Virus record (IMG/VR): IMGVR_UViG_3300037423_001547
DNA: 64,000 bases
Reading direction: 5' to 3' (one strand)
DNA from: a virus
Each line of letters opens with the position of its first letter. Within the stretch, counting starts at the first letter, position 1. Below are positions 1,138 through 39,043 of the stretch, one piece after another. A program made the translations under genes and the position numbers. Under the pieces are notes generated by a model, which was not told the origin of the DNA, did no database searches, and saw only the letters and a program-made list of their open reading frames with translations.

Positions 1138-1698
1138 GTGCGGTGGATGAGTCTCACAGGCAGTACGCGGACCACAACGACGGCAGGCATAGCGCTCCTG
1201 GCCGCCGGCCTGGCTCTCTGCACCAGCGGAGCCATCCGCGACAGCCTCCCCCACGCCCTCGGCGGAACGTGCCTCACCACTGTCGCGCTCACACTGATCG
1301 CACTGACCCTCATCCGGCAATGGGTCAGTGACACGCGGCACGAGCGGAAAGACTTGGCTGCCGCACGCCACGACGCCGAGGCGCAGCAGCGTAAGTTCTT
1401 CGCTCTTCAGGCGGCTAACGAAGGTGAGATGGCCCGTTTCAAACGGGACATGAACATGGAGAAGGCCCGCATCGTCGAGACGCTCAGGGTTGAGCGGGAG
1501 GCGATGCGGGCCCAGTTCGAAGAGGAACGCCTGCAAGTCAGCCAGAACGCGTTCCGGATGGGCGTTGAGATGGAGCGGTCCGGGGCGCTGAGGGCCGTGA
1601 AGCCGGTCCAGCTCGACAATCTCATCCCGTTCCCGGAGCAGGCCTCCCGAGCGTCGGAGCATCAGCGGTCTCGGGAGCACGGAGTGGTCGGTCCCTGA
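1138..1698 (+). CDS. membrane protein, two N-terminal TM helices plus a coiled-coil tail, 186 aa
   Basis: Hydrophobic AGIALLAAGLALC and LTTVALTLIALTLI, then a charged heptad-like region. Starts 7 nt after the repressor stop. Alternative ATG at 1147. The 3' end overlaps int by 77 nt (convergent). Confidence 0.6.
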   Translation: MRWMSLTGSTRTTTTAGIALLAAGLALCTSGAIRDSLPHALGGTCLTTVALTLIALTLIRQWVSDTRHERKDLAAARHDAEAQQRKFFALQAANEGEMARFKRDMNMEKARIVETLRVEREAMRAQFEEERLQVSQNAFRMGVEMERSGALRAVKPVQLDNLIPFPEQASRASEHQRSREHGVVGP

Positions 1699-3262
1699 AC
1701 CCTGGCTCTCCTGCAAACGCCAGCGTGACACGGCCGTCTTCAATTGTCCGGACAGTCGAACTACGCGCCTTCCACAGCCGCACAGTCACCACCTGCCTTA
1801 TGACTTCACGCTTCTGCTCCAGCGACAGCGCCCGCACCGCTGGCCGCCCCTCCTCTTCCGGCGCACCGTTCCACACCACGTCCGGGTCCGGCGCGTTGAT
1901 GAGCGCCAGGAGCACGGGGTCCACACCAGTGATCTCGCGCAGCTTCTTCCGTTCGGCTTCCAGCCTCGGCACGAGCCTCTGCTCCAGCGAGGCCAGCGAG
2001 GCCGCAGAGAGCCTGAACCGCCCCGTCTCCTCGTCGTACTCCTCGGCGGTGCGTCGGGCCTCGGCGAGCTGCTCCTCGAAGGCGTTGATGCGGCGCTGTG
2101 CGGCCGCCATCTCGTCCTCGACAGCACCATCGTCGGGGATCAGAGCGGAGATGGCTTTGGACTTGTCGCGGAACCAGTTGACCACTGCTTCTTCGACGTA
2201 GGCATCGAGCCAGCGTTCCCGGATCGACGTGTCCTTCTTCTCACCGCACTCCAACTTCGGGCCTCTCCCGGCATTGGGGTTCCCCCTCAGCAGCGCGTGG
2301 TCGCCGCAGGGGCCGCACAGGGCAATCAGCGACAGGAGGTGTACGGGCTCAGAGCCGCGCTGCGTGCGCCGAGTTGGGTCCGTCAGCTTGGCCGTGACCC
2401 GGTTGAACATGGCCCGGCCTTCTGGGGTTTCGAGTCCACGGATCGGGGGCCATGTCGCCTTCTTCCAGTCCCCTCCGTTCTTCCGCTCTCCCAAGTACGC
2501 GCGGTTGAGGAGCATCAGCCGGACGTTACGTGTGGTCCACGGGCGGCCGTCCGTGCGGGCCGCTTCCGGTTCGCCGTTCAGCCAGCGGATGAGGGAGGCG
2601 ACGGAGTCCCCGCGATCGATGTGCACGAGCGACTGGTACACGAACGGGCCGGTCGTCTTGTTCTCATACTGGCGGACGCACCTGAGCTGTCCGTTGACGA
2701 CCTCGTAGTCGCGGCTGTAGCCGAACAGGAGCCTGCCGTGCGGGTCGCCGGCCGCGGCCGTGCGCTGGGCGGTGCGCACGTTGCGGTCCCGGATGTCGTC
2801 TGCCTCCCCTTCCGCATTGATGGCGTCCATGGCGGTTGCCCTGCGGTCGTCGCTGCGGCTGAGGTCGTAGACGGTGCCCTTGTAGCAGAGGAGGACGCCG
2901 GCGTGGAGGCAGGCGGCGCGGAGCCTGACGTAGGCCTCAAGGTCGCGGTAGTACCTGCTGGCTTCGTAGGCGACGACGATGCGGGTGATGCCGGGGCGGG
3001 TGGGGGTGGTTTCGATGGCTTCGAGGAGGTCTTCGAAGTCGTCGCGTGCGCGGGTGGCGTGGCGGGATGCTGAGAGGCCGAGGTCTTTGAACTCTTCGAC
3101 GATGCGCCAGCCGTAGTTGTGGCAGATTGCCCGTCCTGCGATGAGCTGGTCTTCGACGCTGTCTCCGCGTTTGTTGGGGTCGCGGGAGGCGCGTCCGTAG
3201 AGCAGTGCTTCGAACTCGGTGTTGGGGAGTACGAGGTGCAGGTATGACGGGTCGTAGGGCAT
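1622..3262 (-). CDS. int: large serine recombinase (phage integrase), 546 aa
   Basis: Resolvase-type catalytic domain with YGRASRD (nucleophile Ser), a recombinase domain, a Cys-containing zinc-ribbon region (CGPCG...LECGE) and a C-terminal coiled-coil. This is the phiC31/Bxb1-type architecture. Confidence 0.95.
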   Translation of the reverse strand: MPYDPSYLHLVLPNTEFEALLYGRASRDPNKRGDSVEDQLIAGRAICHNYGWRIVEEFKDLGLSASRHATRARDDFEDLLEAIETTPTRPGITRIVVAYEASRYYRDLEAYVRLRAACLHAGVLLCYKGTVYDLSRSDDRRATAMDAINAEGEADDIRDRNVRTAQRTAAAGDPHGRLLFGYSRDYEVVNGQLRCVRQYENKTTGPFVYQSLVHIDRGDSVASLIRWLNGEPEAARTDGRPWTTRNVRLMLLNRAYLGERKNGGDWKKATWPPIRGLETPEGRAMFNRVTAKLTDPTRRTQRGSEPVHLLSLIALCGPCGDHALLRGNPNAGRGPKLECGEKKDTSIRERWLDAYVEEAVVNWFRDKSKAISALIPDDGAVEDEMAAAQRRINAFEEQLAEARRTAEEYDEETGRFRLSAASLASLEQRLVPRLEAERKKLREITGVDPVLLALINAPDPDVVWNGAPEEEGRPAVRALSLEQKREVIRQVVTVRLWKARSSTVRTIEDGRVTLAFAGEPGFRDRPLRAPETADAPTLGRPAPGTG

Positions 3263-6049: not shown

Positions 6050-7234
6050 TTACAGGCCGACCCAGGCCGCCATGTGGTTCAGCGTGTCCGGCGTCCGACG
6101 GGCCACATGTACCAGCCCGCGGATCGTCTCCCGCGCGCCAGGGTGGTAGCGGGTCTGCTCCGGCGCCGCGTGACGGGCATCGACCAGCGACTGCAACGCC
6201 GCCTCCGTGTGCCCAGTCTCCATCTCCGTGCGGGCCCGGTCGATGAAGAAGTGGGCGCGGCGGCTGGTGGCGAGCGACGGCGGCAGCTTGATCCTGCGGG
6301 CCTGCGTCAGTGCGGCGTCGTAGTGACGCATCTCCACGGCCGCCGACATCCGGTGCAACATCACATTGGTCGGGCCGAACGACAGCCAGTGAACGTCGGA
6401 GGCGTCCCCGATCCGCTGCGCGATCTGCCGTGCCTCGGAGATGTGGCTGACGACGGTGCTCGTCTGCCGGGCCCGTGCTGCGATGACGGACGCCCCGAGG
6501 TGCAGCTGTCCCATGACCGCGTGCGCTTCGCGGGTGGGTTCGGCCTGCGCAACGGTTGTGTGCCCGGACGCGATGAGTCGCTGGCCGATGGTGTACTCGC
6601 CCTCCCGGAAGTAGACGAGGGCGCGCATGTACTGGCGGACCGCCCCCAAGCACGGGTCCGAAGCACGCTCGGCAGCCCACGCCATCCGGTCCAGGGCGAC
6701 CGCCGACAGATCGTAGTAGCCGAGCTTCACGCTGATGTCGTGGGCGGTCCGGTACGTCGAAGCCAGCGCCTGCCACAGCTCGGTCGACGGCATTGCCCAA
6801 GCAGTGTGCGTGAGTTCGGCGATCGCGCCGGGCAGTGCGCGGGCGGCGTTGCGGAGGTGGGTGGCGCGCACCTGCTCGCACAGCCGGTCCGCCTCCGTGA
6901 TGAGGACGTCGGCCGGCCGGGCGCGCAGGTCCGGGTTGGCGCCGAGGTCGTACAGGTCGAGGGCCTCGCGGATCGGGCGGACCAGTTCGGCGAGCCGGTC
7001 GCGTTGGAGTTCGGTCACGTAGGGCTGTCCCGTGAGGGTGGTGACGTCGACCTTCAGGGCGTGTGCTACGGCTGCGACGAAGTCGGCTGTGGCGGGGCGG
7101 GCGCCGCACTCCACTTGGTTGAGGAGGCTGTACGAGTAGGGGATGCGGTCGGCGAGTGAGCGTTGGGTGAGCCTGGCCAGTTTGCGTTGTTCGCGGATCC
7201 GCGCGCCGGTGTGGTCGTCGTCCAGTGTGGGCAT
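6050..7234 (-). CDS. XRE-family HTH regulator with a long helical-repeat (TPR-like) C-terminal domain, 394 aa
   Basis: N-terminal GARIREQRKLARLTQRSLADRIPYSYSLLNQVECGAR, then about 320 aa of helical repeat. GGAGA RBS before ATG 7234. Confidence 0.85.
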   Translation of the reverse strand: MPTLDDDHTGARIREQRKLARLTQRSLADRIPYSYSLLNQVECGARPATADFVAAVAHALKVDVTTLTGQPYVTELQRDRLAELVRPIREALDLYDLGANPDLRARPADVLITEADRLCEQVRATHLRNAARALPGAIAELTHTAWAMPSTELWQALASTYRTAHDISVKLGYYDLSAVALDRMAWAAERASDPCLGAVRQYMRALVYFREGEYTIGQRLIASGHTTVAQAEPTREAHAVMGQLHLGASVIAARARQTSTVVSHISEARQIAQRIGDASDVHWLSFGPTNVMLHRMSAAVEMRHYDAALTQARRIKLPPSLATSRRAHFFIDRARTEMETGHTEAALQSLVDARHAAPEQTRYHPGARETIRGLVHVARRTPDTLNHMAAWVGL

Positions 7235-9997: not shown

Positions 9998-10450
9998 TTA
10001 CGCGGTGGAGCTGGCCCGGAAGAAGTCGTTGATCGTCAGCGAGAAGTTGTTTCCGTCCGGCGTCCAGGTCAGGTCGTGCTTGGTGAGTGGGATGAGGTCG
10101 GCGTCGGTGCCGCCCGTGGTGTCGGGGTCGTAGCAGATGACGAGGGCGCCGATCGGGTTGCCGGTTGGCGACGTCCACGTGACGTCCGCGGCGTCCAAGG
10201 CGATGCGGTCGTTGGTGTCGTCGACGGTGACCGTGACGCTCGCGAGGGTCTTGCGGCCGACGGTGGTCTGTTCGTTCGTGGTCCCGGCAACCAGCGAGGC
10301 GAAGTCGTCCTTGTCGCGCAGGACGGAATCTGCCTCCAGACCGCTGGACTCCAGGGCGATCAGGATGAGGGCGTCGTTCGCGGCGGGCAGTGAGGCGTAG
10401 TACGCCACCTTGCCCAAGGCGATGTTGAAGGTGATGGTGGCCATGCTCAC
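9998..10450 (-). CDS. hypothetical protein, about 148-150 aa
   Basis: Complete ORF with coding bias, between the collagen-like and LamG fibre genes. Likely start at ATG 10444. Confidence 0.6.
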   Translation of the reverse strand: MSMATITFNIALGKVAYYASLPAANDALILIALESSGLEADSVLRDKDDFASLVAGTTNEQTTVGRKTLASVTVTVDDTNDRIALDAADVTWTSPTGNPIGALVICYDPDTTGGTDADLIPLTKHDLTWTPDGNNFSLTINDFFRASSTA

Positions 10451-10455
10451 TACTC

Positions 10456-11085
10456 CTATACGTACTGCCTGCGCTGGGGGTCCAGCGCCAAGGCCTGCGG
10501 ACTCTTACCGTCGTCGGGATCGCTGGGCTGCGGAGCGCCGTCCTTCCGGCACACCAGCGCATCCGGATCCCACGACGGCACCTGCGGCGAGTAGCCGGTC
10601 GGGCATGCGGGGCCCGCAGGGCCTCGCTCTCCCTGCGGCCCTTGCTCTCCCCTGGGACCAGCCGGTCCGGGCTCGCCTTGCGGGCCCTGCTGCCCGGCCG
10701 GCCCGACGGGACCCGTTGGGCCGGTCGAACCGGCGGGTCCCGTCGTACCGTCGGTCCCGTTCTTCCCGTTCTTGCCGGGGGAGCCAGAGGGGCCGGGTTC
10801 GCCCTGTGGTCCGGTCGGTCCTTCAGGACCCGGTGGACCAGTGACGGTCTTACCTGGTTCGCCGCGAGATCCGGGCGGTCCCGCGACGGGCTTCTCACCG
10901 AGCTGCTCCACCTGCCGGGCGAGCGCGTCACGGGCGGCATTGGCCGTGTGCAGTTCATTGGTGAGGCCCTGCACGCTCAGCACGATCCACGCAAGCGCAG
11001 CCCCGAGCATCAGCGCCGCTGTTATAGCCAGCACATCGCCGCGGCGCCACCGCCGCTCTTCCGCCCTGACTTGCACCCGGCTCAC
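10456..11085 (-). CDS. membrane-anchored collagen-like (Gly-X-Y) protein, 209 aa
   Basis: GTG 11085 sits 2 nt after the upstream stop. TM helix [21 protein letters not shown], a short coiled coil, about 30 uninterrupted GXY triplets (10609-10881), then a Cys-containing C-terminal domain. Confidence 0.8.
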
Positions 11086-11087
11086 GA

Positions 11088-11378
11088 TCAACGCCCCTGT
11101 GTCAGCAGGATGATGACGGGGAGAAGGATCCCGACGAGCGGCACGATCACCGCGCCGATCAGCCACCTGCGGGTGGCGACCAACTTCTCGGTGTCCTTCT
11201 CTCTCAGGGTCTCCAGCGTTGCGACCCGTGCGGCGAGTGCTTCGTGCCGCAGGTCGTAGATCCGCTGGTCGACTTTCTCGTCCATGCGGCGGCCGAGCTG
11301 CTGGATGTCGTCGCGGACGTCGGCGAACCTCTCGTCGAAGCGTCTGACGACTTCACCCAGCGTCGGCTCGTCCGGCAC
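11088..11378 (-). CDS. tail-anchored membrane protein with coiled coil (lysis-cassette accessory), 96 aa
   Basis: C-terminal [23 protein letters not shown]. Position directly after the holin. Confidence 0.6.
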
Positions 11379-11390
11379 GTGCAGCTCCGA

Positions 11391-11657
11391 TCAGACCCGG
11401 GGAGCGGAAGAAGCGGAGTTGGTGAAGCCGATCCCGCGGGCCAGCAGCCCCTTCACGAGGGACACGACAGCGGCGACCCCGGCCGTGCCCACCGCCTGCC
11501 AGAAGCTGACGTTGAACATGTCCGCCGGGCCGGCGGCAAGGGCGACGCTGGCGACCGCGGCAAGGAAGGTCCAGATGACGCGTTCGGTGAGGTCGATGGC
11601 GTAGGTCTTGGCGGTCTTCACGATCGTGTTGACGTCGGGCAGGGATGGAGTGGACAT
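11391..11657 (-). CDS. holin candidate, two TM segments, 88 aa
   Basis: Immediately downstream of the endolysin. TM segments VIWTFLAAVASVALAA and AVGTAGVAAVVSLVKGLLA. Resembles r1t-type holins. Confidence 0.7.
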   Translation of the reverse strand: MSTPSLPDVNTIVKTAKTYAIDLTERVIWTFLAAVASVALAAGPADMFNVSFWQAVGTAGVAAVVSLVKGLLARGIGFTNSASSAPRV

Positions 11658-11690
11658 GGGTTCTCTCTTCTGTGGGTTGGAGTGGGAGGG

Positions 11691-12635
11691 TTACTGGGCG
11701 AGGCGCGCGGCGAGTTTGGCCGCGACCTTCTCTGCGATCTGTTCGGCGAGTGCCGGGTTCGCGGCGACCGCTGCGGCGAGCGCCGTGATCTGCGCGTCCG
11801 ACACGACCGGCGTCGTCAGCGTGTCGACCTTCTTCGCGAGCTCGCGCAGGCGGGTGTTGGTGTCCTTGAGGTAGGACTGGGGCTGCCAGGTCGTGTTGGT
11901 GGCCGCGTCCGGCGCATCCGGCGGGGCGGCGACCTGGTCGGTCTTCCAGACGGCGTCGTAGATGTCGGCCTTGGTGATTCCGGCCATGGGGTCCTCTTCC
12001 TGGGTGGGTCCTGCACGGAGGGTGGAGGCCACGTCGGAGCGGACCGCAGGCATGGCCATGATCTTGCCCGGGGCGTAGCCGGGGTCCCACTTGTCGTCGG
12101 ACCATTCGCCGTGCGCGATGACCGAGCGTTCCGTCCAGCCGTGGAAATCGAGGACCGCCGCCGACAACCGGCGGGCCGCCGCATACTGCGCCGCGCTCAT
12201 CTCATGCGATCCGCTGTACTGGATCTCGACGCCGTAGAAGTGGGCGTTGCCGTCCACCCCGTCGCTGTTGCCGCGCGTCGGGTGCAACTGGCCCGTGTAG
12301 TCCTCGTTGATGACGTGCTGCAGCACCGCCGGGTCGCCGCCGCCAGCGTGGTTCGCTCGGCCCCAGCCGATCAGGTAGACGGTGCCGTCGGCGCCGATGG
12401 AGAAGTGGCAGAGCGGGCCCGGCAGGTCGGAGAGTCCGTTGTAGAGGGTGCCTGCGGCGTAGGCCTTGGCGTCTTTCACGTCGGCGCCGGTGTGGTGCCA
12501 GATGAAGCCGTTGACCGGCCCCCACGCGCCCTTGCTGTTGCGGTTGTGGGTGGCCCAGCCGGAGATCTCGACGTACCGGAGACCCCACTTCTTCAGCTGG
12601 GTGACGGCCTCCGTGGCCGTCATCGGGGTCGCCAT
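11691..12635 (-). CDS. endolysin, N-acetylmuramoyl-L-alanine amidase (PGRP/Amidase_2 type), 314 aa
   Basis: WHHTG...GPLCHF.IG.DG.VYLIGWGRANHAG...HFYGVEI...IAHGEW...K.DPG motif series. ATG 12635 preceded by GGAG. The ORF-track start 12734 lies inside the regulatory motif. Confidence 0.9.
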   Translation of the reverse strand: MATPMTATEAVTQLKKWGLRYVEISGWATHNRNSKGAWGPVNGFIWHHTGADVKDAKAYAAGTLYNGLSDLPGPLCHFSIGADGTVYLIGWGRANHAGGGDPAVLQHVINEDYTGQLHPTRGNSDGVDGNAHFYGVEIQYSGSHEMSAAQYAAARRLSAAVLDFHGWTERSVIAHGEWSDDKWDPGYAPGKIMAMPAVRSDVASTLRAGPTQEEDPMAGITKADIYDAVWKTDQVAAPPDAPDAATNTTWQPQSYLKDTNTRLRELAKKVDTLTTPVVSDAQITALAAAVAANPALAEQIAEKVAAKLAARLAQ

Positions 12636-12710
12636 CTCAGGCTCCGTTCGCGCTGGCGTGGCGGGCGAGTGACGATTCCGCGGGCATGCTGGCCTCCCAC
12701 AGGCTAGGTT

Positions 12711-12726
12711 CCTTTGAATCGTAGCC
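12711..12726 (-). promoter_or_regulatory. late-gene motif copy (minus strand GGCTACGATTCAAAGG)
   Basis: AT-rich 15-mer shared with 37112..37126 and 39609..39623. Lies 23 nt before an RBS-preceded ATG (12687). Confidence 0.5.
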
Positions 12727-12742
12727 TGTAGCACCCCATTGA

Positions 12743-13715: not shown

Positions 13716-13874
13716 ATGAACACCGCCGTCACCATCACCGCGATCATCGCCGCCGTCGCCCTGCTGAACAGCGGCATCACCGCCCTACGCGACATCGCCA
13801 AAGCGAAACACCAGACCGTCACTAAGCACTGCAAGACCTGCACCTGCGACAACAGCAAGGAGTCAGAGGCATGA
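13716..13874 (+). CDS. small membrane protein, 52 aa
   Basis: TM VTITAIIAAVALLNSGI, then KHCKTCTC. Its stop overlaps the epimerase start. Confidence 0.45.
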   Translation: MNTAVTITAIIAAVALLNSGITALRDIAKAKHQTVTKHCKTCTCDNSKESEA

Positions 13875-15547
13875 AGGTTCTGATCACGGGTGGCAGCGGC
13901 TTCATCGCCTCATGGTGCCGCCGGGAACTCCTCGCGCGAGGCCACAGCGTGCTGGTCATGGACCACCAGGACCGCCGCCAGCACCTCGCAGACGGCGAGG
14001 AGTTCTTCCTCGGCGACGTCCGTGACGCAACCGCCGTCACCGAAGCCGCCGCCCACGTCGACGGGATCATCCACCTCGCCGCCGTCCTCGGCACCCAGGA
14101 GACCATCAGCAACCCGCGGCCCAGCGCCGAGACGAACATCCTCGGCAGCCTGAACGTCTTCGAGGCCGCCGTGCAGTACAACCTCCCTGCGGTCTATGCA
14201 GGGGTGGGGAACGCGTGGATGCGGGACCACGGAACCGGCTCCTACACGATCAGCAAGACGGCGGCCGAGGACTTCGTCCGCATGTTCAACGCCTACCGCA
14301 GCGGCCGTATCACGATCGTCCGCCCCGTCAACGCCTACGGGCCGGGGCAGAGCATCGCCGCCCCCTACGGCTGCGTCGATCCGAGCACACCCGTACTGTG
14401 CGCCGACCTCGTCTGGAGGCCGATCTCCAGCCTGCGGGAAGGTGACGAGATCGTCGGCATCGACGAGTACGCGCCAGCGAAGAAGCAGCGAAAGCTGCGT
14501 CGGTCCACCGTGACGGGCTCGTGGGCAACGCGAAAGCATGCCGTCCGTCTCCACTTCGACGACGGCCGGTCGGTCACCTGCTCGCTCGATCACCCCTGGC
14601 TCGCATCCTCACCGTCGGGGCAGATCCGCCAGTGGATCGAGGCGCGGAAGCTCCGCACAGGGGACCGCGTCGTGTGGGCCACGGATCAGACCTGGGACGC
14701 TGGGGACAGCCGTTCCCACGGCTACGTCTCTGGACTCCTCGACGGCGAGGGGCATGTAGGCGGCCACGGCCCGGTATTCACGCAGAACCCCGGCCCCGTG
14801 CTGGACGAGTACCTCTACCTCCTCAAAGAGTTCGGGTTCGAGCCCCAGACCCGGACGAAGGAGAACGGCCGGATCGTCGTGGACACGTCGGTCTCGGGAC
14901 TGACTTCACGACTTCGGCTGCTGGGCGAGTTCCGCCCCGTCCGTCTCCTTGCGAGGGCCTCGCAGCTCTGGGAAGACAAGGCGCCGAACGGCGGCCGGGC
15001 GACCATCACGGCCATCGAAGAGCTGGGCGAGACGGACCTGTGGGACGTCGAGACCACGTCGCACACCTACATCGCCAACGGGTTCGCGTCACACAACTCC
15101 AGCAAGGTCCGCAAGATCATGCCCGCCCTGACGTGCCGTGCGCTGACCGGTGCGGACATCGAGGTGTACGGCGACGGCACCCAGATCTCCGACTGCGTGT
15201 ACGTCGGCGACGTGGCGCGGACGTTCGTGACCGCGTTTGAGCACACCGCCGCGCACGGGCCGACGGAGAAGCCGGTGGAGGTCGGGCCGCTCACGTCGGT
15301 CACCGTCAACGACATCGCCCGCCTGGTCGCTGAGGAGGCCGCGCGGGTGACGGGGCGGGAGCCGGTCGGGTTGAAGCATCTGCCGATGCGGCCGGGTGAG
15401 GTCCCGAACGCTGTCGTCTCCTCCGACACCAGCACGCTGCAGCAGATCGGGATGACGGCCGCGGACTTCGTGCCGCTCGACGAGGGCATCCACCACACGG
15501 TCCGCTACTACGCCGAGCAGTGGCTCCCCGGCTACCTGGCCGCCTGA
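13871..15547 (+). CDS. NAD-dependent sugar epimerase/dehydratase (extended SDR) interrupted by an intein, 558-aa precursor
   Basis: GGSGFIAS Rossmann motif, catalytic YTISK (YxxxK) and NAYGPGQ. The exteins (167 + 149 aa) join into a normal 316-aa SDR. Confidence 0.9.
   Translation: MKVLITGGSGFIASWCRRELLARGHSVLVMDHQDRRQHLADGEEFFLGDVRDATAVTEAAAHVDGIIHLAAVLGTQETISNPRPSAETNILGSLNVFEAAVQYNLPAVYAGVGNAWMRDHGTGSYTISKTAAEDFVRMFNAYRSGRITIVRPVNAYGPGQSIAAPYGCVDPSTPVLCADLVWRPISSLREGDEIVGIDEYAPAKKQRKLRRSTVTGSWATRKHAVRLHFDDGRSVTCSLDHPWLASSPSGQIRQWIEARKLRTGDRVVWATDQTWDAGDSRSHGYVSGLLDGEGHVGGHGPVFTQNPGPVLDEYLYLLKEFGFEPQTRTKENGRIVVDTSVSGLTSRLRLLGEFRPVRLLARASQLWEDKAPNGGRATITAIEELGETDLWDVETTSHTYIANGFASHNSSKVRKIMPALTCRALTGADIEVYGDGTQISDCVYVGDVARTFVTAFEHTAAHGPTEKPVEVGPLTSVTVNDIARLVAEEAARVTGREPVGLKHLPMRPGEVPNAVVSSDTSTLQQIGMTAADFVPLDEGIHHTVRYYAEQWLPGYLAA
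14372..15097 (+). mobile_element. intein, 242 aa, with a single LAGLIDADG-like motif
   Basis: Starts with Cys1 (CVDPSTPVLCADL). Block-B-like SLDH. GYVSGLLDGEGHV. Ends ...YIANGFASHN followed by Ser(+1) at 15098. Confidence 0.85.
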
Positions 15548-15562: not shown

Positions 15563-16165
15563 GTGGCCCGCTTGCAGATCCTGCAACTTCCCGAAGGCGC
15601 TGGCGACGACCGGCCGCCGTTCGTCCTCGTCATCGACCAGCACCAGCCGCAGCGCTACGCACTCGGCATCGGCGAGGACGAGCCCGAGATGGTCGACGAG
15701 TTCGCCGGCGTCGCCGAGCAGATCGGGGCCCGTGTCGTGTTGGTGTTCCAAGAGACCGTCGAGATCCCTGCGAATGAGACCGCCGTGCACGCGCAACCCC
15801 TGATGCGCGTCGCGGACTTCGCGGGGCTCGACGAGATCAAGCGGCTGACCGAAGAGCGTGACGAAGCCCGCCTGTGGGCCCGACACGGCTACGAGATCGG
15901 GCAACGCCACTGCGGCTGGTCCGACCACGGCGTCGCACCCGACTGGCTCACCGAAGGTTGGCCGCCCCACTTCGACGACTGCGAGCACTTCAAGCGTGCG
16001 GCGGACTACGACGAGGCGCTCACCCGCGTCCGCAACCTGCCCGAGGAGCCCAAGTTCATGGATGCCCTGCACTCCGACTCCGCTGGCTACCGGCACGGCT
16101 ACCGAGTGGCCATCGGCGATGCCAAGCGCGCCACCCGAGCCCGAGCCGCAGAGGACGGAGGCTGA
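15563..16165 (+). CDS. hypothetical protein, 200 aa
   Basis: GTG preceded by AAGGAGG. Coding bias. No motif recognised. Confidence 0.65.
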   Translation: MARLQILQLPEGAGDDRPPFVLVIDQHQPQRYALGIGEDEPEMVDEFAGVAEQIGARVVLVFQETVEIPANETAVHAQPLMRVADFAGLDEIKRLTEERDEARLWARHGYEIGQRHCGWSDHGVAPDWLTEGWPPHFDDCEHFKRAADYDEALTRVRNLPEEPKFMDALHSDSAGYRHGYRVAIGDAKRATRARAAEDGG

Positions 16166-16166
16166 C

Positions 16167-17180
16167 GTGCGCTGCCACTTCTGGTCCGCTGACCAGGCGG
16201 GTTCCAGTCTGTACAGGGCTACCCTGCCCGGGATGAGCTTGCAGTGGCTCGGTCACAATGTGTCCGGCGGCATGCGACTCCCCCAGGACTGGCCTGCCCT
16301 CGACGCGGTCGTTGGCTGCCGGGTGGCCAAGCGGGAGCCGTCCCTGATGTGGCACAAGCTGAAGGACGAGGGGAAGCGGCTCGTCCTCGACCTCGACGAC
16401 GACTACTTCCACATCGACCCCAGCAACGCCCACGCCCGCCAGGTCTGGGACACCGACATGCTCGGCAGGCTCGTCGCCAACATGCAGATCGCAGACCTCG
16501 TCACCTGCTGCTCCGAACCCCTCGCCGACGTCCTCCGCAACTACGCCGAAAACGTGCGAGTGATTCCGAACGGGCTGCCGGCGCAGTACCTGGGCACGCC
16601 CCGCGACTACGAGGCCGCGGATCGTCCGCTGTTCGTGGGCTGGGCTGGCACGTCGTCCACGGTGGCGGAGTTGCCAGAGACTGTTCGCGCCCTCAACCGG
16701 ATCGCCCAGTACCCGCGGCCCGGCGGCGGGGTGCAGGTCCGCATCGTTGGGATCAGCCCGGAGCACGCGATGGGCCTGGGGCTGCGCGGCCGGCGGGTCG
16801 GTGCGTTGGGTTGGGTGGAGCGGTTCGAGCACTACCTGCACGCGGTGTCCGAGTTCGACGTGTGGTGTGCGCCGTACAGGGACACGGCGTTCAACCGGGC
16901 GAAGTTCGCTACGAAGTGGCTGGAGGCCTCGGTGCTGGGGATCCCGCTGATCGCCTCCGATATCGAGCCGTACCGGCGGGTGATCCGGCATGGGGAGAAC
17001 GGGTTCCTCGTGAAGTACGAGCACGAGTGGGGACGCTGGCTTAAGCGGCTCGCCGACGACCCGGAGCTGCGCCAGCGGATCGGGATGACGGCGCGGGGTG
17101 AGGCGTCGGGCAGCATCATGCAGGCGTTGCATCACCAGTGGGAGGCGGCCGTCCGCATGCCTGCGGAGGTGACCGCATGA
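16167..17180 (+). CDS. GT-B fold glycosyltransferase (GT4/GT1-like), 337 aa
   Basis: GTG 16167 follows GGACGGAGG, 1 nt after the previous stop. C-terminal half FVGWAG...E..A..LGIP.IASD....R.VI.HGENGFLV is the retaining GT-B signature. Confidence 0.85.
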   Translation: MRCHFWSADQAGSSLYRATLPGMSLQWLGHNVSGGMRLPQDWPALDAVVGCRVAKREPSLMWHKLKDEGKRLVLDLDDDYFHIDPSNAHARQVWDTDMLGRLVANMQIADLVTCCSEPLADVLRNYAENVRVIPNGLPAQYLGTPRDYEAADRPLFVGWAGTSSTVAELPETVRALNRIAQYPRPGGGVQVRIVGISPEHAMGLGLRGRRVGALGWVERFEHYLHAVSEFDVWCAPYRDTAFNRAKFATKWLEASVLGIPLIASDIEPYRRVIRHGENGFLVKYEHEWGRWLKRLADDPELRQRIGMTARGEASGSIMQALHHQWEAAVRMPAEVTA

Positions 17181-20212: not shown

Positions 20213-23122
20213 TCAGATCCGGAAGCACCAGAAGTAGATGGACCAGAGCCCGGATCCGGCGGGGCTGATGGTGGCGGTGAACCCGGTGGCGTCGGATGCA
20301 GTGCAAGAGTTCGAATGGACCACATCGTCACGAATGGTGTAGATGGGCAGCATTTGGGATGCCTTGGTGGAACCGAAGGAGATGGAGATGGACGATGAGC
20401 CGCTGGTGGCGTCGATGGACCCGGTGAAAAGTCCCATGTTCGTGCCGCGGTCGGTGAAGTCGTCCCACTTGCCGGTGTGGTGGGTGATGCTGTCGTTGCC
20501 GAACCAGAGCACGTTTTCGTTGCCGGTTCCCTGCCCGAACCCGACAAAGGCTTGGTTCGCGTCAGCGTAGAATTCCCCGCCTTGACCGTATGAGACCTGC
20601 GCTTTGTTCGAGTCGGCGTAAAAGTTTCCCCCCTCGGTTCCGCCTCTGTTGAACCCGGCGTAGAGGGCTCCCGGCGCGGCCCATACGTAGCCGCCGCGTC
20701 GTTGCTCGCTGGGGAACGTGATGCTTTCGAGGGCGGCGGCGGAACTGGTCAGATAGACGCGGTTGGCGCACGTGACGCCTGCGTCGTCGAAGGGGCTGGA
20801 GTTGACGCCGACGGAGACGTCCGTGCCTGCCGAGACGCCGTTGATGGACCCGTAGTCGGTGCCGGTGTTGGCGTAGAAGCGGATCTCGGGCAGGAGTGTG
20901 GCGGTTGGGTTGATCTCGATACGGCGGCCGCTGGTCCCGGATTTGAGCTGCCCGATGATGGACACCGACCCGTCAGCCGCCGCGATGTTCACCGTCTGCG
21001 TGCCTGAGCCGTTGTAGGCAAGCAGCCCTGCGCTGGAGAGTTCAACGCGCGCCCCGCTGTCGGCGGTCTTGATGCGCGAGCCGACGATCCAGTCCGCGCT
21101 GATCGTGCCAGCGGTGACCTTGGTGACGGTGAGATCAGAGATGTGGGCGTCGTCGATGAGGAGCGCGGTCGCCGTGGCCGCATCCGAGGGCCCGCTCTTG
21201 TTGCCCGCCTTGTCGACCGCGATCACCCGGACGTAGCGGGCCGATGTCTCCTCCACCTGCACCGTGAAGACGACCGGGATCTGCGCCTGCATCATGCCCG
21301 CGTTTGCGACGGCCTTGCCGAGCAGCGTCGAGGTGGACGGCGTGAACGTCGGCTCGTAGCTCACGTGGACTTCGAGGTGGTCGAGGTCCGCCTCCAGGTT
21401 GTACGTACCGCCACTGGACTTGCCAAGGGTGTGCGTGATCTGCACAGCGATCCGTGAGCCGGCCACCGACGGGGCCGCCGGCGTGGACGGCGGAATGTTG
21501 TCCGAGGTTGCCACGAACGTCGTGGTAGCCGACCAGGCGCCAGTGTTGCCGGTGGAGTCGACGCCACGGATCTGCACGTCGTAGCCGACACCAGGGCTGA
21601 GGTCGAGGAGTTCGGCGGTGGTGTGGTCCCAGGCCACCGTCATGTACTGCCACTGGGTGGACGGTGCGGCAAACGGCTGCTTCCAGACCTGCATGTCCTG
21701 CCAGCGGATCTGGCTGACCTGGGACCAGGTGGCCGGGTAGATCATGTCGGTGTCGATGGCCCAGCGGATGTCGTAGTGGTCGCCGTCCAGGACGGTGGAG
21801 CCGTCGACGTTGTTCGGGGCGTTCCAGGACAGGATCGTGCGGGCGCGGGTGAAACCGCGGTTGTCGAGGTAGGCGGCGCCGGTGAATGGGGTGATGAATA
21901 CCGGTACGCCTGGCGTCGAGGTGTCGCTGTTGGGGCGGGAGCCGACGGGTTCGGTGCTGGTGTTGGTGAGCTGGCGGGAGAAGTCGCCGACGGTCACCGT
22001 GGACGTGGCGTCGGTTTCCCATTCGACGTACTGGGTGAGATCAGTCCAGGTGCCGTTCGCGTCGCGGTAGGCGACCGTGTACTGCTCGGTGATCGCCCAC
22101 TGGGTTTCGGCGACTTGCAGTTTGATCGGGTTGATTCGTACGCCCCGGAACGTGATCTCCGTGCTCGTGTCGACGAGCCCACTGTCCGGGTCGTACACCC
22201 ACACTCGGTCACCGACGACGAAGCTGCCGTGGACGTCGTAGTCGGCCGTGCTGAGGGTGAGGGCGTTGCGGGTCGACGTGAACTGGGACAGGGCCAGTTG
22301 CGCCCGTGTGGCCGCGTTTGCGGTCGCCGTGTCCGACTCGGACACCAGCCGTGTCAGCTTCAGCGCGTTGCCGTGGATGTCCTTGTACGGAGTCGCCGGG
22401 CTGATGTTCGCCGACCCGGTGGCGATGCTGGAGCCCTCGCCCTCCGCGAGGAGCACCACCCGCGTGCTGTAGTCCTCCACATCCCGGGTGACGTCCACGC
22501 TGCCGGGCAGCGCACGGAGGAACATGTCCTCCCCGGTCTCCTTGGTGGTGATCACACAGGTGGGGTTGGTGACGAACAGGCTGCTGTCCGGGCCCGCGTC
22601 CAACGTCCCGTTGCCGTTGACCCGCCAGGACACCGGCACCGAAGTGGTGGACATGGTGTCGCACACGTAGGTGATCGCCTCACGGGGCGACTCGTACTGA
22701 TGCCGGCCGGTGTACTGCCCGGACACGCTGTAGATGGTGCCTGCGGTGACCGCGCCGCTGGCTGGCAGGAGCATGTTGATGGCGGTGGCGAAGGATGCGG
22801 ACGCGGGCTCAACCGCGTTCTCGTAGACGTCGCCCTTGCCGTCCTCGTCCCCCAGCCAGAACGCCATGCCGACCCCGCCGATGGACAGATCGTCTTGGGG
22901 AGCCGCGGTGCGGCCGTCGTCGCCGATGGTGCGGGTGCGGAGGACACCGACGTAGCGGGCGGCAGTCAGCAGGTTGTCGCCGTACTGGGCCGGGTCCAAC
23001 CGGCCGGGGATGATCGCGACATGCCCGAAGTAATCGAGGCGGTCGAGGACGTCGCGGGGCGTCCCAGGGAGGAGCTTGACCTCCCACGAGCCGAGGGCTT
23101 TGAGAACCTCCTGGACAGCCAC
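20213..23122 (-). CDS. large minor tail protein (Tal-like tip protein with FN3-type repeats), 969 aa
   Basis: Position after Dit. N-terminal tail-tip-like domain, FN3-like segments (PPSTPAAPSV...), Gly/Ser-rich C-terminal receptor-binding-like region. Confidence 0.85.
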   Translation of the reverse strand: MAVQEVLKALGSWEVKLLPGTPRDVLDRLDYFGHVAIIPGRLDPAQYGDNLLTAARYVGVLRTRTIGDDGRTAAPQDDLSIGGVGMAFWLGDEDGKGDVYENAVEPASASFATAINMLLPASGAVTAGTIYSVSGQYTGRHQYESPREAITYVCDTMSTTSVPVSWRVNGNGTLDAGPDSSLFVTNPTCVITTKETGEDMFLRALPGSVDVTRDVEDYSTRVVLLAEGEGSSIATGSANISPATPYKDIHGNALKLTRLVSESDTATANAATRAQLALSQFTSTRNALTLSTADYDVHGSFVVGDRVWVYDPDSGLVDTSTEITFRGVRINPIKLQVAETQWAITEQYTVAYRDANGTWTDLTQYVEWETDATSTVTVGDFSRQLTNTSTEPVGSRPNSDTSTPGVPVFITPFTGAAYLDNRGFTRARTILSWNAPNNVDGSTVLDGDHYDIRWAIDTDMIYPATWSQVSQIRWQDMQVWKQPFAAPSTQWQYMTVAWDHTTAELLDLSPGVGYDVQIRGVDSTGNTGAWSATTTFVATSDNIPPSTPAAPSVAGSRIAVQITHTLGKSSGGTYNLEADLDHLEVHVSYEPTFTPSTSTLLGKAVANAGMMQAQIPVVFTVQVEETSARYVRVIAVDKAGNKSGPSDAATATALLIDDAHISDLTVTKVTAGTISADWIVGSRIKTADSGARVELSSAGLLAYNGSGTQTVNIAAADGSVSIIGQLKSGTSGRRIEINPTATLLPEIRFYANTGTDYGSINGVSAGTDVSVGVNSSPFDDAGVTCANRVYLTSSAAALESITFPSEQRRGGYVWAAPGALYAGFNRGGTEGGNFYADSNKAQVSYGQGGEFYADANQAFVGFGQGTGNENVLWFGNDSITHHTGKWDDFTDRGTNMGLFTGSIDATSGSSSISISFGSTKASQMLPIYTIRDDVVHSNSCTASDATGFTATISPAGSGLWSIYFWCFRI

Positions 23123-23125
23123 CCG

Positions 23126-24334
23126 CTACCTCCGAACCCCATAGACGCTCTCCGGCATGCATGCCACGTACTGGTTCCGCAGATCCGTCGCCGCGTCCCC
23201 TGAGACCGCGCTGCCGCCGCCGGCTACGACTCCGATCCAGAAGTCCATGCTCGTCGTACTCGCCTTGGTGACGCCGCCGTTCGTGTGTGCGGTGAAGGTG
23301 CGGGCGGAGCCGACGGCGAACCGGTTGCCGTCGGAGTCGTTCGCCGTGGCGGTGACGTATCCGGATGCCGCGAAGCTGGTGTTGGTCTCCAGCGTGGACC
23401 GGTAGGCGGCCAACGTGGCGGAGGTGCCGGTCTGGAGGTAGCCCTCAACGAACCGGGAGCCGCGGCGGAGGGTGAGGTCGAGGGTGGTGCGCCCGGGGTT
23501 CTGGCTCTTGATGAGCCTCACGACGGCCATCTCGGGGTCGTTGCGGATGAGGGTGGCTGCGTCCCAGGTGGTGATGCTGCTGGCGGATCCGGCGACGGAG
23601 ACGTTCCACAGCTTCGAGTGGTAGGCGCCGCCGGTGTAGGCCTGTACGTCGAGGGTGGCCGAGGCGCTGGGTGTGACGTTGACGAGGCCGTTCGACAGGG
23701 CCCAACCAGCGGCCGAGAGCGGCACGTCGACGCCGTACACCTCCTGCGACGCCGTGGTGGTGACCTTCACGCGGCCCGTCAGGTAGCTGGTCGGGGCGCA
23801 GCCCCAGCGTGGGCTGATGTTGGCGGGGACGCTGCGGTAGACGGTGATCGTGCCGTCCGCGCTGGCGCGGGTCATCGTGGTCGGGTTGGTGGTGCCGGTG
23901 TAGTAGCCGTAGTGGCCGATCGGCGGGGCGTGCCAGCGCTCGCCGGTCAGGGAGAAGTCGTTCAACCGGACGGCGCCGGTGAGGCGGGACTGGAGGTCGG
24001 TCTCCGAGTCGGAGCCGACCCGGTCCAGGCTGACTTTCCAGTCGGCGGTCACCATGTCCGTGCGGTACTCGGTGTACGTGCTGCTCGCGGCCTTGACCGT
24101 GTAGTAGCCGTTCCGCTCCGGCTTGTCCGTCCACGTGACGGGGATGCACTGGCCCGGGATCAGCGCGTTGATCCCGTCGTGTCGGGCCACCACCTGCGCG
24201 CGGGTGAGCGGCGGATACGACTCCTGCCCTTCGATGTCGAGGCTACGGTCGTCGCCGCCAGACTCTCCGACGGCGAACGTCTCCCGCAATGGGATCCGCC
24301 CGAGCTGGACGTCGCCCCAGTTGTACAAGGCCAT
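23126..24334 (-). CDS. distal tail protein (Dit-like), 402 aa
   Basis: ATGA overlap with the tape-measure stop (ATG 24334). Synteny TMP-Dit-Tal. The ORF-track 499-aa version overlaps TMP and is unlikely. Confidence 0.75.
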   Translation of the reverse strand: MALYNWGDVQLGRIPLRETFAVGESGGDDRSLDIEGQESYPPLTRAQVVARHDGINALIPGQCIPVTWTDKPERNGYYTVKAASSTYTEYRTDMVTADWKVSLDRVGSDSETDLQSRLTGAVRLNDFSLTGERWHAPPIGHYGYYTGTTNPTTMTRASADGTITVYRSVPANISPRWGCAPTSYLTGRVKVTTTASQEVYGVDVPLSAAGWALSNGLVNVTPSASATLDVQAYTGGAYHSKLWNVSVAGSASSITTWDAATLIRNDPEMAVVRLIKSQNPGRTTLDLTLRRGSRFVEGYLQTGTSATLAAYRSTLETNTSFAASGYVTATANDSDGNRFAVGSARTFTAHTNGGVTKASTTSMDFWIGVVAGGGSAVSGDAATDLRNQYVACMPESVYGVRR

Positions 24335-27300
24335 CAGCGCGCCCTCTCCCGGTCGTAGGTCCGCAGCGCTTCCTTGATCTCGACGACCAGCTCCTGCGCG
24401 GCCTGCCTGCGCGCGGACCGGCTGGAGAAGTCGAAGCTGCCCGAGACGGTGATGTTCTCGATCGTGACGCTGCCGCCACCCCGACCGGAGACGAGCTGCT
24501 CGAACATCGCCGTCTGCCGGGCGTCCAGCACGCGCTCCGGGCGTCCGGTCCGGTTGATGGCCATCGTGGCGCCGGGCTGCAGCAGGCCACCGCTGTCGTA
24601 CTTGGCGGCCGGCGCGAAGCCCCACCGGCTGGTGAACAGGCTGTCGCGGTAGGAGCGGGCGCGCGGGCCGACGATGACGCCGGCGCCGCCCCGGGACTCG
24701 ACGTTGACGCCTGCGATGGTGCCTGCGGTGTGGCCGACACCGGAGTTGGTGATCCCGACCATGAAGGGGCTGTTGAGGTTGCGGACCCAGCCGGACGGGC
24801 CGTTGTTCCCGACGAACGCGCCGGTCGCCCAGCGGCGGTGCGGGCGCTCGCCACGGATCACAGACTCAATCGCCGACATGAACCCGGAGCAGTCCCAGCT
24901 GGGGTTCCCGTTTCCGGCCCACTGATAGGGCAGGCCAGCCTGGGTCTTCGCCCACGCCAGCGCCCGCTGTACGGCTGGCCCGCCCACGGCCTTCTTGTCC
25001 TCGTTGCCCAGGAAAGACAGCATCCCGTCGAGGGCCTTGTTGGAGAGGCCCTTCAGGAGGGAGCCGACGCCGCCGCCGGGGATCCGGCCGATGAGCGGGC
25101 GGACGATGGCGGCGATGGCTTTCTGCGCGGCCGACTTGAGTCCACCGATCACCAGGTCTTTCGCCCAGTCGACTGCGCCGCCGATGGCTCCTCCGATGCC
25201 GGAGGTGATGCTGCCGACGATGCCGCCGGAGGCGTAGTGCTGGGTGCCGCCTTGGTACCGGCGGCGTTCCTCTTGCCTGCTGGGGTTGCCGCCGGTTTTG
25301 GTGGGGTGGTCCTGGCCGAGCATGGCGTCGATGCCGCGGTGTCCGCCGAGCTGGGCGACCTGCTGCTTGGAGAGGATGCGCTCGCCGGGGGTGAGCATGG
25401 CGGGGACGGTGTCGGTGTTGCCGGTGCCGGGGACGACGCCGCCCTTGTTGAAGCCGAGGCTGATGGTGGGCAGCGTCAGCTTGGAGTTGATTTTTCCGGC
25501 GATGGTGTTCCACATCTTCCGGATGCCTGAGTTGTACACATGTGACACCACCCATTTCACGGGGGCCGCGAACTTGGACTGGATGCCCGCGAACAGGGTT
25601 CCGGTGCCGTCACGGATCGCGCGGACACCGTTGAGGAAGGCGTTCTTGAAGTCGCTGAGCTTGCCTCGCAGGGTGGAGAAGACGCTGGTGACCTTGGACA
25701 CGGCGCTGTTCCACAGCCCGTTCCAGGTGTTCGTGACCGAAGTCCTCAGCCCGGACACCCAGTTCACTACCGACGTCTTCGCGCCGGTGAGGGCCTTCCA
25801 CAGTCCGGACCAGAAGCTGTCCCACTTCGATCGGGCGCTGTTCCACAGGTTGTTCCAGGTGTCGACGACCCACTTGCGCAGGTTGTTGAAGATCTCCTTC
25901 GACTTCGTCCAGAGCTTGGTGAACCAGTCGATGATCGCGTGCACCAGATCCGGGATGATCGAGTGCCCGACGAGAACGTCATACAGCCACGTGAACTTGT
26001 CGACGATCCACTTGACGCCGTCCGTGATCGCCTTGGTGAACGTGGTGATCCACCCGATGACCGTCGTAATCGCCGGGACCAGCGTGGTGATCGCGCTCGT
26101 GAGTACGGTCGTCAGCATGGTCGCGAGCTGGAGGATCAGCGGCATCAAAGGTGTGAGCACCTGCAACGCCAGGTCCAACAGCGCGATCGTGAGCTGCGAC
26201 AGCGGCGGAATCAACGGCAACACCGCAAGCATCAGCTGCGGGAACAAAGGAGCCAACTGCCCGAGGAACTGGCCGAACTGCTGCACGATCGGCACCAGCG
26301 CCCCGACGACCGGCAACAAGCCCTGCGTCAACGCGCCGATCAGCGGCACCAACTGGGCGCCGAACGCCGAGATCATCGGCCCCAGCGCCTCGACGATAGC
26401 CCCGATCAGCTCACCGAGCGGCGGCAGCAGCGGCATGACCGCCTGCACCAGCCCGACGATGATGTCCCCGACATCCGACACGATCGGCAGCAGCGCGTCC
26501 ACGATCGGCATCAACGCCTTGCCCAGCGCAGCGGCGAGGTCGGCGAGGACGGGCCCGAACTTTTCCGCCAACTCGGTCACGACTGGCGCCAGCGCGGCGA
26601 GCAGCGGCAGCAGCGCCTCGATCACCGCACCCAGGGTTCCCGCGAACAGCTTCGCGATCGAGTTGACCGCCGTAAAGATCGACGTGAGGGCCTTCTGCAC
26701 CTCCGGCATCGCTGTGATCTTCCGCAGCTCCGCGAACACGGCCCCCAACGAACCGAGCGCGTCACCACCACCTGCGGATGCCGCCTTGAAGATGTTCTTG
26801 ACCGTGCCGAAGATGTCACCGAGGAGCTGCCCGAACTGCTTCGCGATGTCGACACCGTTGTTGATGGCGTCCTCAAGAGCACCCGACTTGAACGCGTCCG
26901 ACAACTTCTTCGAGATGCGGTCCGCCGCAGTGCCGGCCGCCGTCGTCAGCCGCTCGAACGCTGGCGACGCGGCGATGCTGATCTGCGTGAGCGCGGTGAC
27001 GATCTGCCCGGGGATCCGGGTCAGCTGGCTCGTGGCGTCGTTGAGGCCCTGGAACATCTTCCGCAGTTGGCCGGTCTTCGCCAGCTCGATCACAGCGTTC
27101 GCGGCGTTCGTCGCCATCGCGTTGAGATTGCTGGCCATGCCGACCAGCCCAGCCCGCAGCGAGGGGATCACCGCCGTGGACAGCTCGGTGAACTTCTGCC
27201 CCAACCCTTGGAAGAGGGCGTTCTGAACGTCCAGCTTCAGGCCCCGCCACGCATCCCGCTGCGCGAGCACAGAGTTGACGAAGGCCTGCGCGTTCGGCGC

Positions 27301-38799: not shown

Positions 38800-38803
38800 C
38801 GGG

Positions 38804-39043
38804 TCAGCCCTCGTCGTCGCGGCTGCTGACGTAGCCGCCGTTCTCGATCTCCAAGGCGGCCGTGAGCATGCCGAGCGTGGTGATCCAGTCGAGGGATTCA
38901 CTGGCCGCCTTGACGAGGCTGACGACCCCGTCAGCCTTTACGATCTTCAGGATGACGTGGGCGTCGGTCGGCATGTCACCCTCGTCCAGGTCGACGGTGA
39001 CGCCGAGCGCGTCGAGGAGCTGCCCGATCTTCTGGTCAGGCAT
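38804..39043 (-). CDS. hypothetical protein between terS and terL, 79 aa
   Basis: Complete ORF overlapping the terS end by 8 nt. Confidence 0.55.
   Translation of the reverse strand: MPDQKIGQLLDALGVTVDLDEGDMPTDAHVILKIVKADGVVSLVKAASESLDWITTLGMLTAALEIENGGYVSSRDDEG

Follow-up and report, generated by a model that had tools for sequence, protein, structure and literature searches.

A probable mobile class-1 intein in a sugar-nucleotide enzyme gene of a temperate Streptomyces siphophage

Introduction

The class-1 splicing pathway is known for inteins in general, and inteins have been described from several proteins of actinophages. Among the closest described relatives of the element reported here are those of Pham3880, a terminase-like protein of cluster C1 mycobacteriophages from which 33 inteins are known; one of these, in ScottMcG gp245 (Pham3880-g), splices in a reporter made of maltose-binding protein, the intein and green fluorescent protein (MBP-intein-GFP), and the nuclease assays of the same study used two-motif inteins only, from BAKA and Bethlehem (Kelley et al., 2016, PMC5050341). 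Here we analyzed a 64,000-nucleotide (nt) stretch of viral DNA, IMG/VR record IMGVR_UViG_3300037423_001547 (hereafter the window), in which a gene for an extended short-chain dehydrogenase/reductase (SDR) is interrupted by an in-frame insert of 242 amino acids (aa). Sequence comparison and structural modeling indicate that this insert is very probably a class-1 intein, functional and mobile, and that the gene it occupies belongs to a temperate Streptomyces siphophage and encodes a sugar-nucleotide enzyme of the SDR type.

The type of intein is one already known from actinophages, and the SDR appears to be a new host for inteins. In a recent survey, 784 actinophage inteins were distributed over 19 host proteins, none of which was an SDR, an epimerase, or any other sugar-nucleotide enzyme (2025, bioRxiv 10.1101/2025.01.02.630785), and no intein in an epimerase, dehydratase, or sugar-nucleotide enzyme was found in the open-access literature, where absence is no proof.

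Results

An extended SDR gene interrupted by a 242-aa insert

Translation of the precursor open reading frame (ORF) placed the insert exactly where it had been put by the original prediction, made from the sequence alone, namely at 14372-15097, directly after ...AAPYG (Table 1). The insert begins with CVDPSTPVLCADL (CVDPST...) and ends in ...IANGFASHN, with FASHN at 15083-15097 and Ser as the following residue. Cys1, the block-B motif SLDH, one LAGLIDADG-type motif, the terminal His-Asn, and the +1 Ser were likewise all found at the predicted positions, and joining of the exteins without the insert gave the expected continuous SDR of 316 aa.

The exteins matched the Pfam Epimerase family (PF01370) in two separated stretches and well above cutoff (E 5.6e-35), and the predicted SDR motifs were all present, including the N-terminal GxxGxxG NAD-binding motif (GGSGFIAS) and the catalytic YxxxK (YTISK), as well as NAYGPGQ. 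The JGI/IMG record of the exact precursor protein carries the name ‘nucleoside-diphosphate-sugar epimerase’; among the named equivalogs of NCBIfam, none scored above cutoff, the best being TIGR01181 (83 bits, cutoff 365) and the GalE model TIGR01179 (68 bits, cutoff 262). The best solved relatives were GalE-type extended SDRs (E about 3e-26), in which the insertion site aligned with the end of the YGPRQ...PYG loop (6WJB, 4ZRM), a conserved loop between the Rossmann and substrate-binding halves. Because the insert splits this conserved YGPxQ...PYG loop, the unspliced precursor would probably be inactive, and it is a reasonable inference that the enzyme is made only after splicing, as had been proposed.

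Several side observations concern the gene itself. In one pairwise HMMER alignment only, the catalytic Ser/Thr position of GalE-type SDRs (SST in 4ZRM) fell opposite AGV, within a YAGVGN segment that is conserved in the phage and Streptomyces family (SDR residues about 108-114, window 14190-14210); the enzyme may therefore dispense with the classical S-Y-K triad. GC content at third codon positions was lower in the intein (0.855) than in the N-extein (0.916) and C-extein (0.953), as would fit an insert whose evolutionary past differs somewhat from that of its flanks. ORFs overlapping the intein in antisense or shifted frames were considered and were taken as artefacts typical of DNA with 68% GC.

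Intein-free homologues and intein-bearing alleles

To locate the insertion point, extein homologues were recruited from phage genomes and protein databases. Searches of GenBank phages by tblastn recovered intein-free orthologues from the ∼185-200-kb Streptomyces phages Frankenweenie, Kela, JustBecause, Quantum, Kradal, Satis, and EhyElimayoE, which read ...QSVAAPYG/PSKVRKILPA... across the site (the slash marks the insertion point), the insert being matched by one gap of 242 columns. From among 5.8 billion proteins, a further search added >100 homologues of about 317 aa, many of them from Streptomyces genomes and soil metagenomes; the closest were 91-92% identical to the window exteins, and all were continuous across the site (...AAPYG/(T or P)SKVRK...). 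The intein-free site of a related phage locus, L015, reads ...GTGGCCGCCCCCTACGGC/ACGTCCAAGGTTCGCAAG... Alignment of the exteins to intein-free homologues thus yielded a clean, in-frame insertion point, and the length of the rejoined enzyme agreed with that of its uninterrupted relatives.

The protein search also recovered six further alleles with an insert at the same site (P0002-P0007, 554-570 aa), and a scan of IMG/VR added another, L023, bringing the intein-bearing alleles to eight (P0001-P0007 and L023). Cys1, the S-x-x-H of block B, the terminal Ser-His-Asn, and the +1 Ser were kept in all eight, which are 48-91% identical to each other. The +1 residue differed between occupied and empty sites, being Ser in eight of eight intein-bearing alleles and, among 100 empty alleles, Thr in 95, Pro in three, Ile in one, and Ser in one; either Ser is required by the intein, or the Ser codon travels together with it. 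Pro is the +1 residue of the intein-free jumbo phages. The single intein-free allele with a +1 Ser (AEPYG/SSKVRK) might represent precise intein loss.

A large intein family with conserved splice residues

When the insert alone was used as the query of an exhaustive HMMER search, 1.84 billion cluster representatives yielded 3138 matches at E<=1e-3, 2209 at E<=1e-10, and 191 at E<=1e-30, nearly all of them aligning over the full 242 residues to a stretch of 240-280 aa within proteins of widely varying length. When termini were parsed in the best 150 proteins and the six sister alleles, 166 full-length segments were obtained, all of which started with Cys and all but one of which ended in His-Asn, followed by Ser, Cys, or Thr. 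Together with the clean insertion point, this pattern is far beyond chance. The exception, residues 324-567 of P0168, ends in His-Gln (...GCFHHQ/S), possibly reflecting a variant C-terminal cleavage step or a decaying copy.

An alignment of 36 members defined a family signature consisting of C(L/V)xPxT, an invariant block-B His, GY/WLAGxxDGEG, an invariant Gln in QNPG, LRxLGxxRPxRLL, LWEG, and a terminal ...TFIAxGxxSHN. In block B, the insert has Ser in place of Thr; among family members, this Ser71 is almost always kept and His74 without exception. Matches of the family profile in the PDB were PI-PfuI (1dq3, E 4e-8), the gp41-1 intein, I-AniI (its C-terminal half), I-Tsp061I, PI-SceI, and the Mxe GyrA intein. 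The NCBIfam model NF038136, built for the intein-containing radical SAM protein Rv2578c, matched the insert as well (E 6e-19), only over the intein part of the profile.

Inteins of this family occupy a wide range of phage genes: hosts among 70 close metagenomic members included DNA polymerase A, TerL, Amidase_2 lysins, GT2, GT1, and GT4 glycosyltransferases, RecA, Mgm101-like proteins, UDG, methylases, and portal proteins. Many metagenomic proteins (P0121-P0137, P0143, and P0164) carry two inteins of the family at different sites of one polypeptide, as in P0121 (residues 179-443 and 491-741).

Predicted structure of the insert

The intein was modeled with AlphaFold2 (AF2) on the 36-sequence family alignment, giving a mean predicted local distance difference test score (pLDDT) of 96.4 and a predicted template modeling score (pTM) of 0.91; an earlier attempt with an alignment of seven sequences was poor (pLDDT 57.5) and was discarded. 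The model predicts a HINT domain together with one LAGLIDADG half-domain. The top 50 Foldseek matches in the PDB were all inteins or related HINT autoprocessing domains (hedgehog, BIL) at probability 1.00, the best being the TliVMA and PhoVMA inteins, PI-SceI, Ssp and Npu DnaB, gp41-1, and Mtu RecA, and the TM scores normalized to the target were about 0.8 for the mini-inteins Npu DnaB, gp41-1, and Ssp DnaB. The clean insertion site, the large intein family, the AF2 and Foldseek results, and the phage genes in the window all support the proposal of a canonical class-1 intein in a phage enzyme.

Within the insert, Pfam LAGLIDADG_3 scored 26.3 bits against a cutoff of 22.5. The modeled half-domain comprises a helix (114-126), two strands (127-130 and 133-138), a helix (142-153), two strands (158-162 and 170-174), and a final helix (177-187), that is, one alpha-beta-beta-alpha-beta-beta-alpha unit rather than two. 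In its motif, GYVSGLLDGEG, G121 and G127 are invariant in the family alignment and D124, G125, and E126 nearly so.

Mobility and selection

Comparison of intein-bearing alleles revealed that the inteins are more similar to each other than are the enzymes that carry them. Between P0001 and P0002, protein identity was 84% in the exteins and 91% in the intein (DNA: N- and C-exteins 81.2% and 82.1%, intein 89.9%); between P0003 and P0004, the corresponding values were 76% and 91% (DNA: 73.1% and 66.7%, intein 83.1%), and between P0005 and P0006 they were 67% and 97% (DNA: 64.7% and 64.8%, intein 98.8%). In the last pair, perfect identity continued beyond the intein for just 18 nt on its upstream side and 5 nt on its downstream side. 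For each intein-bearing allele, the closest relatives by extein sequence were themselves intein-free (window to P0009, 92%; P0002 to P0019, 95.6%; P0003 to Frankenweenie, 86.7%) and were located in syntenic phage loci, and the intein was present in only one of 21 related IMG/VR loci. Together, these features are classically those left by homing in which co-conversion tracts are short, and the intein evidently is a live, mobile element with recent transfer between phages, as judged from these identities.

Ratios of nonsynonymous to synonymous substitution (dN/dS), calculated by the Nei-Gojobori method for three informative pairs, were 0.14, 0.055, and 0.18 for the intein, 0.12, 0.056, and 0.10 for its LAGLIDADG part alone, and 0.14-0.33 for the exteins. 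These low values point to purifying selection on both the host enzyme and the nuclease-like part; in the exteins this argues for splicing, since the enzyme would otherwise be expected to decay, and in the LAGLIDADG part it argues for a function of the half-domain.

At locus L019, a gene for an HNH_3 endonuclease (PF13392; 1200-1748, + strand) overlaps the start of the intein-bearing SDR gene P0005, such that a second mobile nuclease adjoins the intein-bearing gene.

Proposed mechanism and alternative explanations

Under the proposed mechanism, the 558-aa precursor would be translated in full, after which the HINT domain would excise itself. Cys168 (intein Cys1) would attack the carbonyl of Gly167 in an N-S acyl shift, the N-extein would be transferred to Ser410 (the +1 residue) by trans-esterification, and Asn409 would cyclize with the help of His408, freeing the 242-aa intein; an O-N shift would then restore an ordinary peptide bond between Gly167 and Ser in the 316-aa enzyme. 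As DNA, the element would spread by homing, with intein-free copies of the SDR gene as its targets, and the nuclease involved would putatively be a homodimer of its own single-motif LAGLIDADG half-domain. Since the target has no dyad symmetry above chance, we regard it as about evenly balanced whether the intein's own homodimeric nuclease drives homing.

Several observations weigh against a fully functional, self-homing intein. The splicing-domain profiles stayed below their curated cutoffs (PF14890, E 4.5e-5, 23.8 bits vs. 35.8; TIGR01445, 20.2 vs. 24.5), and the youngest pair, P0005/P0006, gave a dN/dS of about 1, with very few substitutions. Furthermore, each chain has one LAGLIDADG motif and one unit with short beta-hairpins (strands of 4-6 residues), whereas the solved intein-borne endonucleases that it matched (PI-SceI, PI-PfuI, and the VMA inteins) have about 360-450 residues and two LAGLIDADG motifs per chain. 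Finally, a homodimer might be expected to favor a palindromic target, yet the best dyad symmetry in the reconstructed and empty target sites covered 5-8 of 11 positions, the same as in shuffled controls, and lends no support either way to a homodimeric nuclease.

A single-motif unit could build a two-metal active center only as a dimer, as in I-CreI-type enzymes. We tentatively raise the idea, to which we give less than even credence, that in this family the ∼90-aa half-domain forms an active homing endonuclease when two inteins, or two precursors, pair as a homodimer; the nuclease architecture would then be minimal and dependent on dimers. No description of a homodimeric single-motif architecture for intein-borne endonucleases was found in the open-access literature, in which absence is no proof. 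To our knowledge, the intein-borne endonucleases known so far are much larger, two-motif monomers.

Alternatively, the intein may be competent in splicing and dead as an endonuclease, with the half-domain a structural remnant and the element passed on by vertical descent, ordinary phage recombination, or a nuclease acting in trans, an explanation that we hold to be possible and on the whole doubtful. It would account for the single motif and single alpha-beta-beta-alpha-beta-beta-alpha unit and for a target without symmetry, and the HNH_3 gene immediately upstream of the intein-bearing SDR in L019 offers a candidate nuclease; however, neither the window nor the L013, L021, and L022 loci have such a neighbor. 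The half-domain is also under purifying selection at least as strong as that on the splicing domain (dN/dS 0.056-0.12), a family with thousands of members shows little or no variation in the DGEG motif, at Q138, or in the RPxRLL segment, and a break in identity so close to both intein ends as that between P0005 and P0006 is not expected from random recombination.

It is improbable, in our estimation, that splicing of this intein is conditional, so that the supply of active enzyme during lysogeny or infection is delayed or gated post-translationally, for instance by a redox switch in which Cys1 acts together with Cys10 or Cys70. Insertion in a conserved loop, with a precursor that is probably inactive, would suit such a switch, as would the extra cysteines near Cys1, of which Cys70, beside block B, is common in the family; in addition, a precursor is visible for the related Pham3880-g intein only (Kelley et al., 2016, PMC5050341). 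However, Cys10 is not conserved in the family, the distribution of the intein resembles that of a selfish element, and about 95% of related phage alleles are without it, so a regulatory role is not needed for the enzyme.

A non-splicing insert (a decayed intein, a BIL-type or other retained HINT-like domain, or a pseudogene) would fit the subthreshold splicing-domain profiles and is nonetheless highly improbable, as all four catalytic positions are kept in eight divergent alleles, purifying selection acts on the exteins, the insertion interrupts a conserved loop of the enzyme, Foldseek matched inteins at probability 1.00, and the His-Asn end followed by a +1 Ser is the arrangement that canonical inteins need for extein ligation, one that BIL domains commonly do not have. 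BIL or hedgehog-type HINT domains, a non-splicing insertion, and a pseudogene were thus rejected in view of the complete set of splice residues and of purifying selection on both exteins and intein.

Phage context

The window derives from a temperate siphovirus-type Streptomyces phage or prophage, the temperate lifestyle being indicated by a large serine recombinase (Table 1). The SDR gene and a gene for a GT1-family glycosyltransferase form an island on the + strand, flanked by lysis genes on one side and tail genes on the other, an arrangement that recurs in related phages and prophages; the pairing of SDR and glycosyltransferase is kept in L001, L013, L015, and L017, and in the jumbo phages both genes adjoin tail genes. 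The 200-aa ORF that separates the two genes in the window had no Pfam or PHROG match and is absent from L013, L015, and L017, where the glycosyltransferase directly follows the SDR.

Gene content and integration genes vary between the related phages. In the intein-free sister L015, the same island contains a second SDR (RmlD_sub_bind/Epimerase, 287 aa) and a GT2 glycosyltransferase (10346-11958, + strand), indicating that the glycosylation island is variable. The P0002 locus lies on a genome contig of Streptomyces sp. NPDC050416 beside a tyrosine-type integrase, so related phages use different integrases. Megablast against GenBank phages revealed no close relative of the gene or of window positions 1-25000, the only match being one of 75% over the holin genes of Streptomyces phage OnionKnight; the phage itself is not a sequenced isolate.

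Table 1. Features of the interrupted SDR gene and of the surrounding phage genome, in window coordinates.
Feature	Position	Strand	Evidence or remark
Precursor gene: extended-SDR NDP (nucleoside-diphosphate)-sugar epimerase/dehydratase interrupted by the intein	13871-15547	+	558 aa plus stop; ORF list, Pfam PF01370
N-extein, aa 1-167, Rossmann part with GGSGFIAS, YTISK, and NAYGPGQ, end ...AAPYG	13871-14371	+	Gapless alignment to intein-free homologues
Probable class-1 intein, 242 aa (precursor aa 168-409)	14372-15097	+	Alignments, family search, AF2 model, Foldseek
Cys1 codon TGC (Cys168), predicted step-1 nucleophile	14372-14374	+	Invariant in 8/8 alleles and 166/166 family segments
Block B S-L-D-H, TxxH type, intein aa 71-74	14582-14593	+	36-member family alignment
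Single LAGLIDADG half-domain, intein aa 112-200	14705-14971	+	Pfam LAGLIDADG_3, family profile, AF2 model, dN/dS
LAGLIDADG motif GYVSGLLDGEGHV	14720-14758	+	Glu126 at metal-binding position
C-terminal splicing region, blocks F and G, ...DLWDVETTSHTYIANGFASHN	14972-15097	+	Aligns to C-termini of gp41-1 and Mxe GyrA inteins
His241-Asn242, intein end	15092-15097	+	H241 invariant, N242 nearly so in the family
+1 Ser codon TCC (Ser410), predicted step-2 nucleophile	15098-15100	+	Ser in 8/8 intein-bearing alleles
C-extein, substrate-binding half of the SDR, start SSKVRKIMPA	15098-15547	+	149 aa plus stop
Large serine recombinase (Resolvase plus Recombinase domains)	1622-3262	-	
Regulator	6050-7234	-	
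Endolysin	11691-12734	-	
ORF, 200 aa, between SDR and glycosyltransferase	15563-16165	+	Also in L006-L012
GT1-family glycosyltransferase, conserved SDR partner	16233-17180	+	Pfam Glyco_trans_1_4, E 2e-11
Minor tail protein	20213-23122	-	
Tape measure	24334-28776	-	
Major head protein	32722-33636	-	
Portal	35563-37152	-	
TerL	37192-38901	-	

Discussion

The intein described here adds a carbohydrate-metabolism enzyme, encoded in a glycosylation island of temperate Streptomyces phages and of jumbo phages, to the phage proteins invaded by inteins. The original prediction had called such a host unusual, which is borne out by the absence of any SDR or epimerase from the 19 surveyed hosts and is tempered by close metagenomic relatives of the intein in glycosyltransferases, Amidase_2 lysins, UDG, and other proteins; as family members already reside in glycosyltransferases and other hosts, a carbohydrate enzyme is no conceptual outlier. 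Current annotation of the intein-bearing SDR genes names an epimerase and makes no mention of an intein. Alleles with and without the intein can be matched into natural homing pairs for the study of homing and co-conversion, including one pair with 98.8% identity in the intein against 65% outside it. More broadly, these alleles belong to a very large phage intein family with half a LAGLIDADG nuclease that is conserved and evidently mobile, and how its DNA target is cut is a testable question; a dimer-dependent half-domain nuclease, if true, would be used by thousands of phage inteins and could serve as a compact engineering scaffold.

Comparison with known systems

As an enzyme, the spliced product would resemble the GalE-type SDRs, among them the UDP-hexose 4-epimerases 4ZRM, 2P5U, and 6WJB, with which it shares GxxGxxG, YxxxK, and the YGPxQ...PYG loop; however, identity to these proteins is low, and the catalytic Ser/Thr position is seemingly Val in the phage/Streptomyces family.

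Among isolated phages, the nearest counterparts of the insert by tblastn were in TerL of a Ralstonia phage (RPZH6; 33% identity, E 4e-32), the terminase of Bixzunavirus (cluster C1) mycobacteriophages (e.g., Colt gp244, E 2e-24), and the portal of Gordonia phages (e.g., Newt, E 1e-20). From its cluster and annotation, we infer that the Colt gp244 intein is the Pham3880-g intein. The three inteins have the same signature as the insert, running from C(L/V)xPxT... through GY/WLAGxxDGEG, Q-x-x-G, and LRxLGxxRPxRLL to ...TFIAxGxxSHN, followed by S or T, each has a single LAGLIDADG motif, and their size is similar (about 265-295 aa vs. 242 aa here); they differ in insertion site and in host, which is a DNA-packaging or portal protein instead of an SDR, and identity is only 26-33%.

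With regard to the endonuclease, PI-SceI, PI-PfuI, TliVMA, and PhoVMA likewise carry a LAGLIDADG nuclease fold between blocks B and F of the HINT domain, and PI-SceI/VMA-type inteins were the best structural matches (7qsu, E 2.5e-10; 1dfa, E 1.5e-8); however, these proteins have about 360-450 residues, in contrast to the one half-domain of ∼90 aa found here. PI-SceI, PI-PfuI, and the VMA-type endonucleases act as monomers, some with an extra DNA-recognition region. Enzymes of the homodimeric I-CreI/I-MsoI type, as well as I-Tsp061I, which the family profile matched (PDB 2dch, E 5e-6) along with I-MsoI (E 1.6e-3), have one motif per chain, one alpha-beta-beta-alpha-beta-beta-alpha unit, and an acidic residue at the end of the motif, as here. 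I-CreI-type enzymes have longer beta-hairpins than the strands modeled here and cut near-palindromic targets, and members of the I-CreI/I-MsoI type are free-standing or intron-encoded, whereas the half-domain of the window is embedded in a HINT domain.

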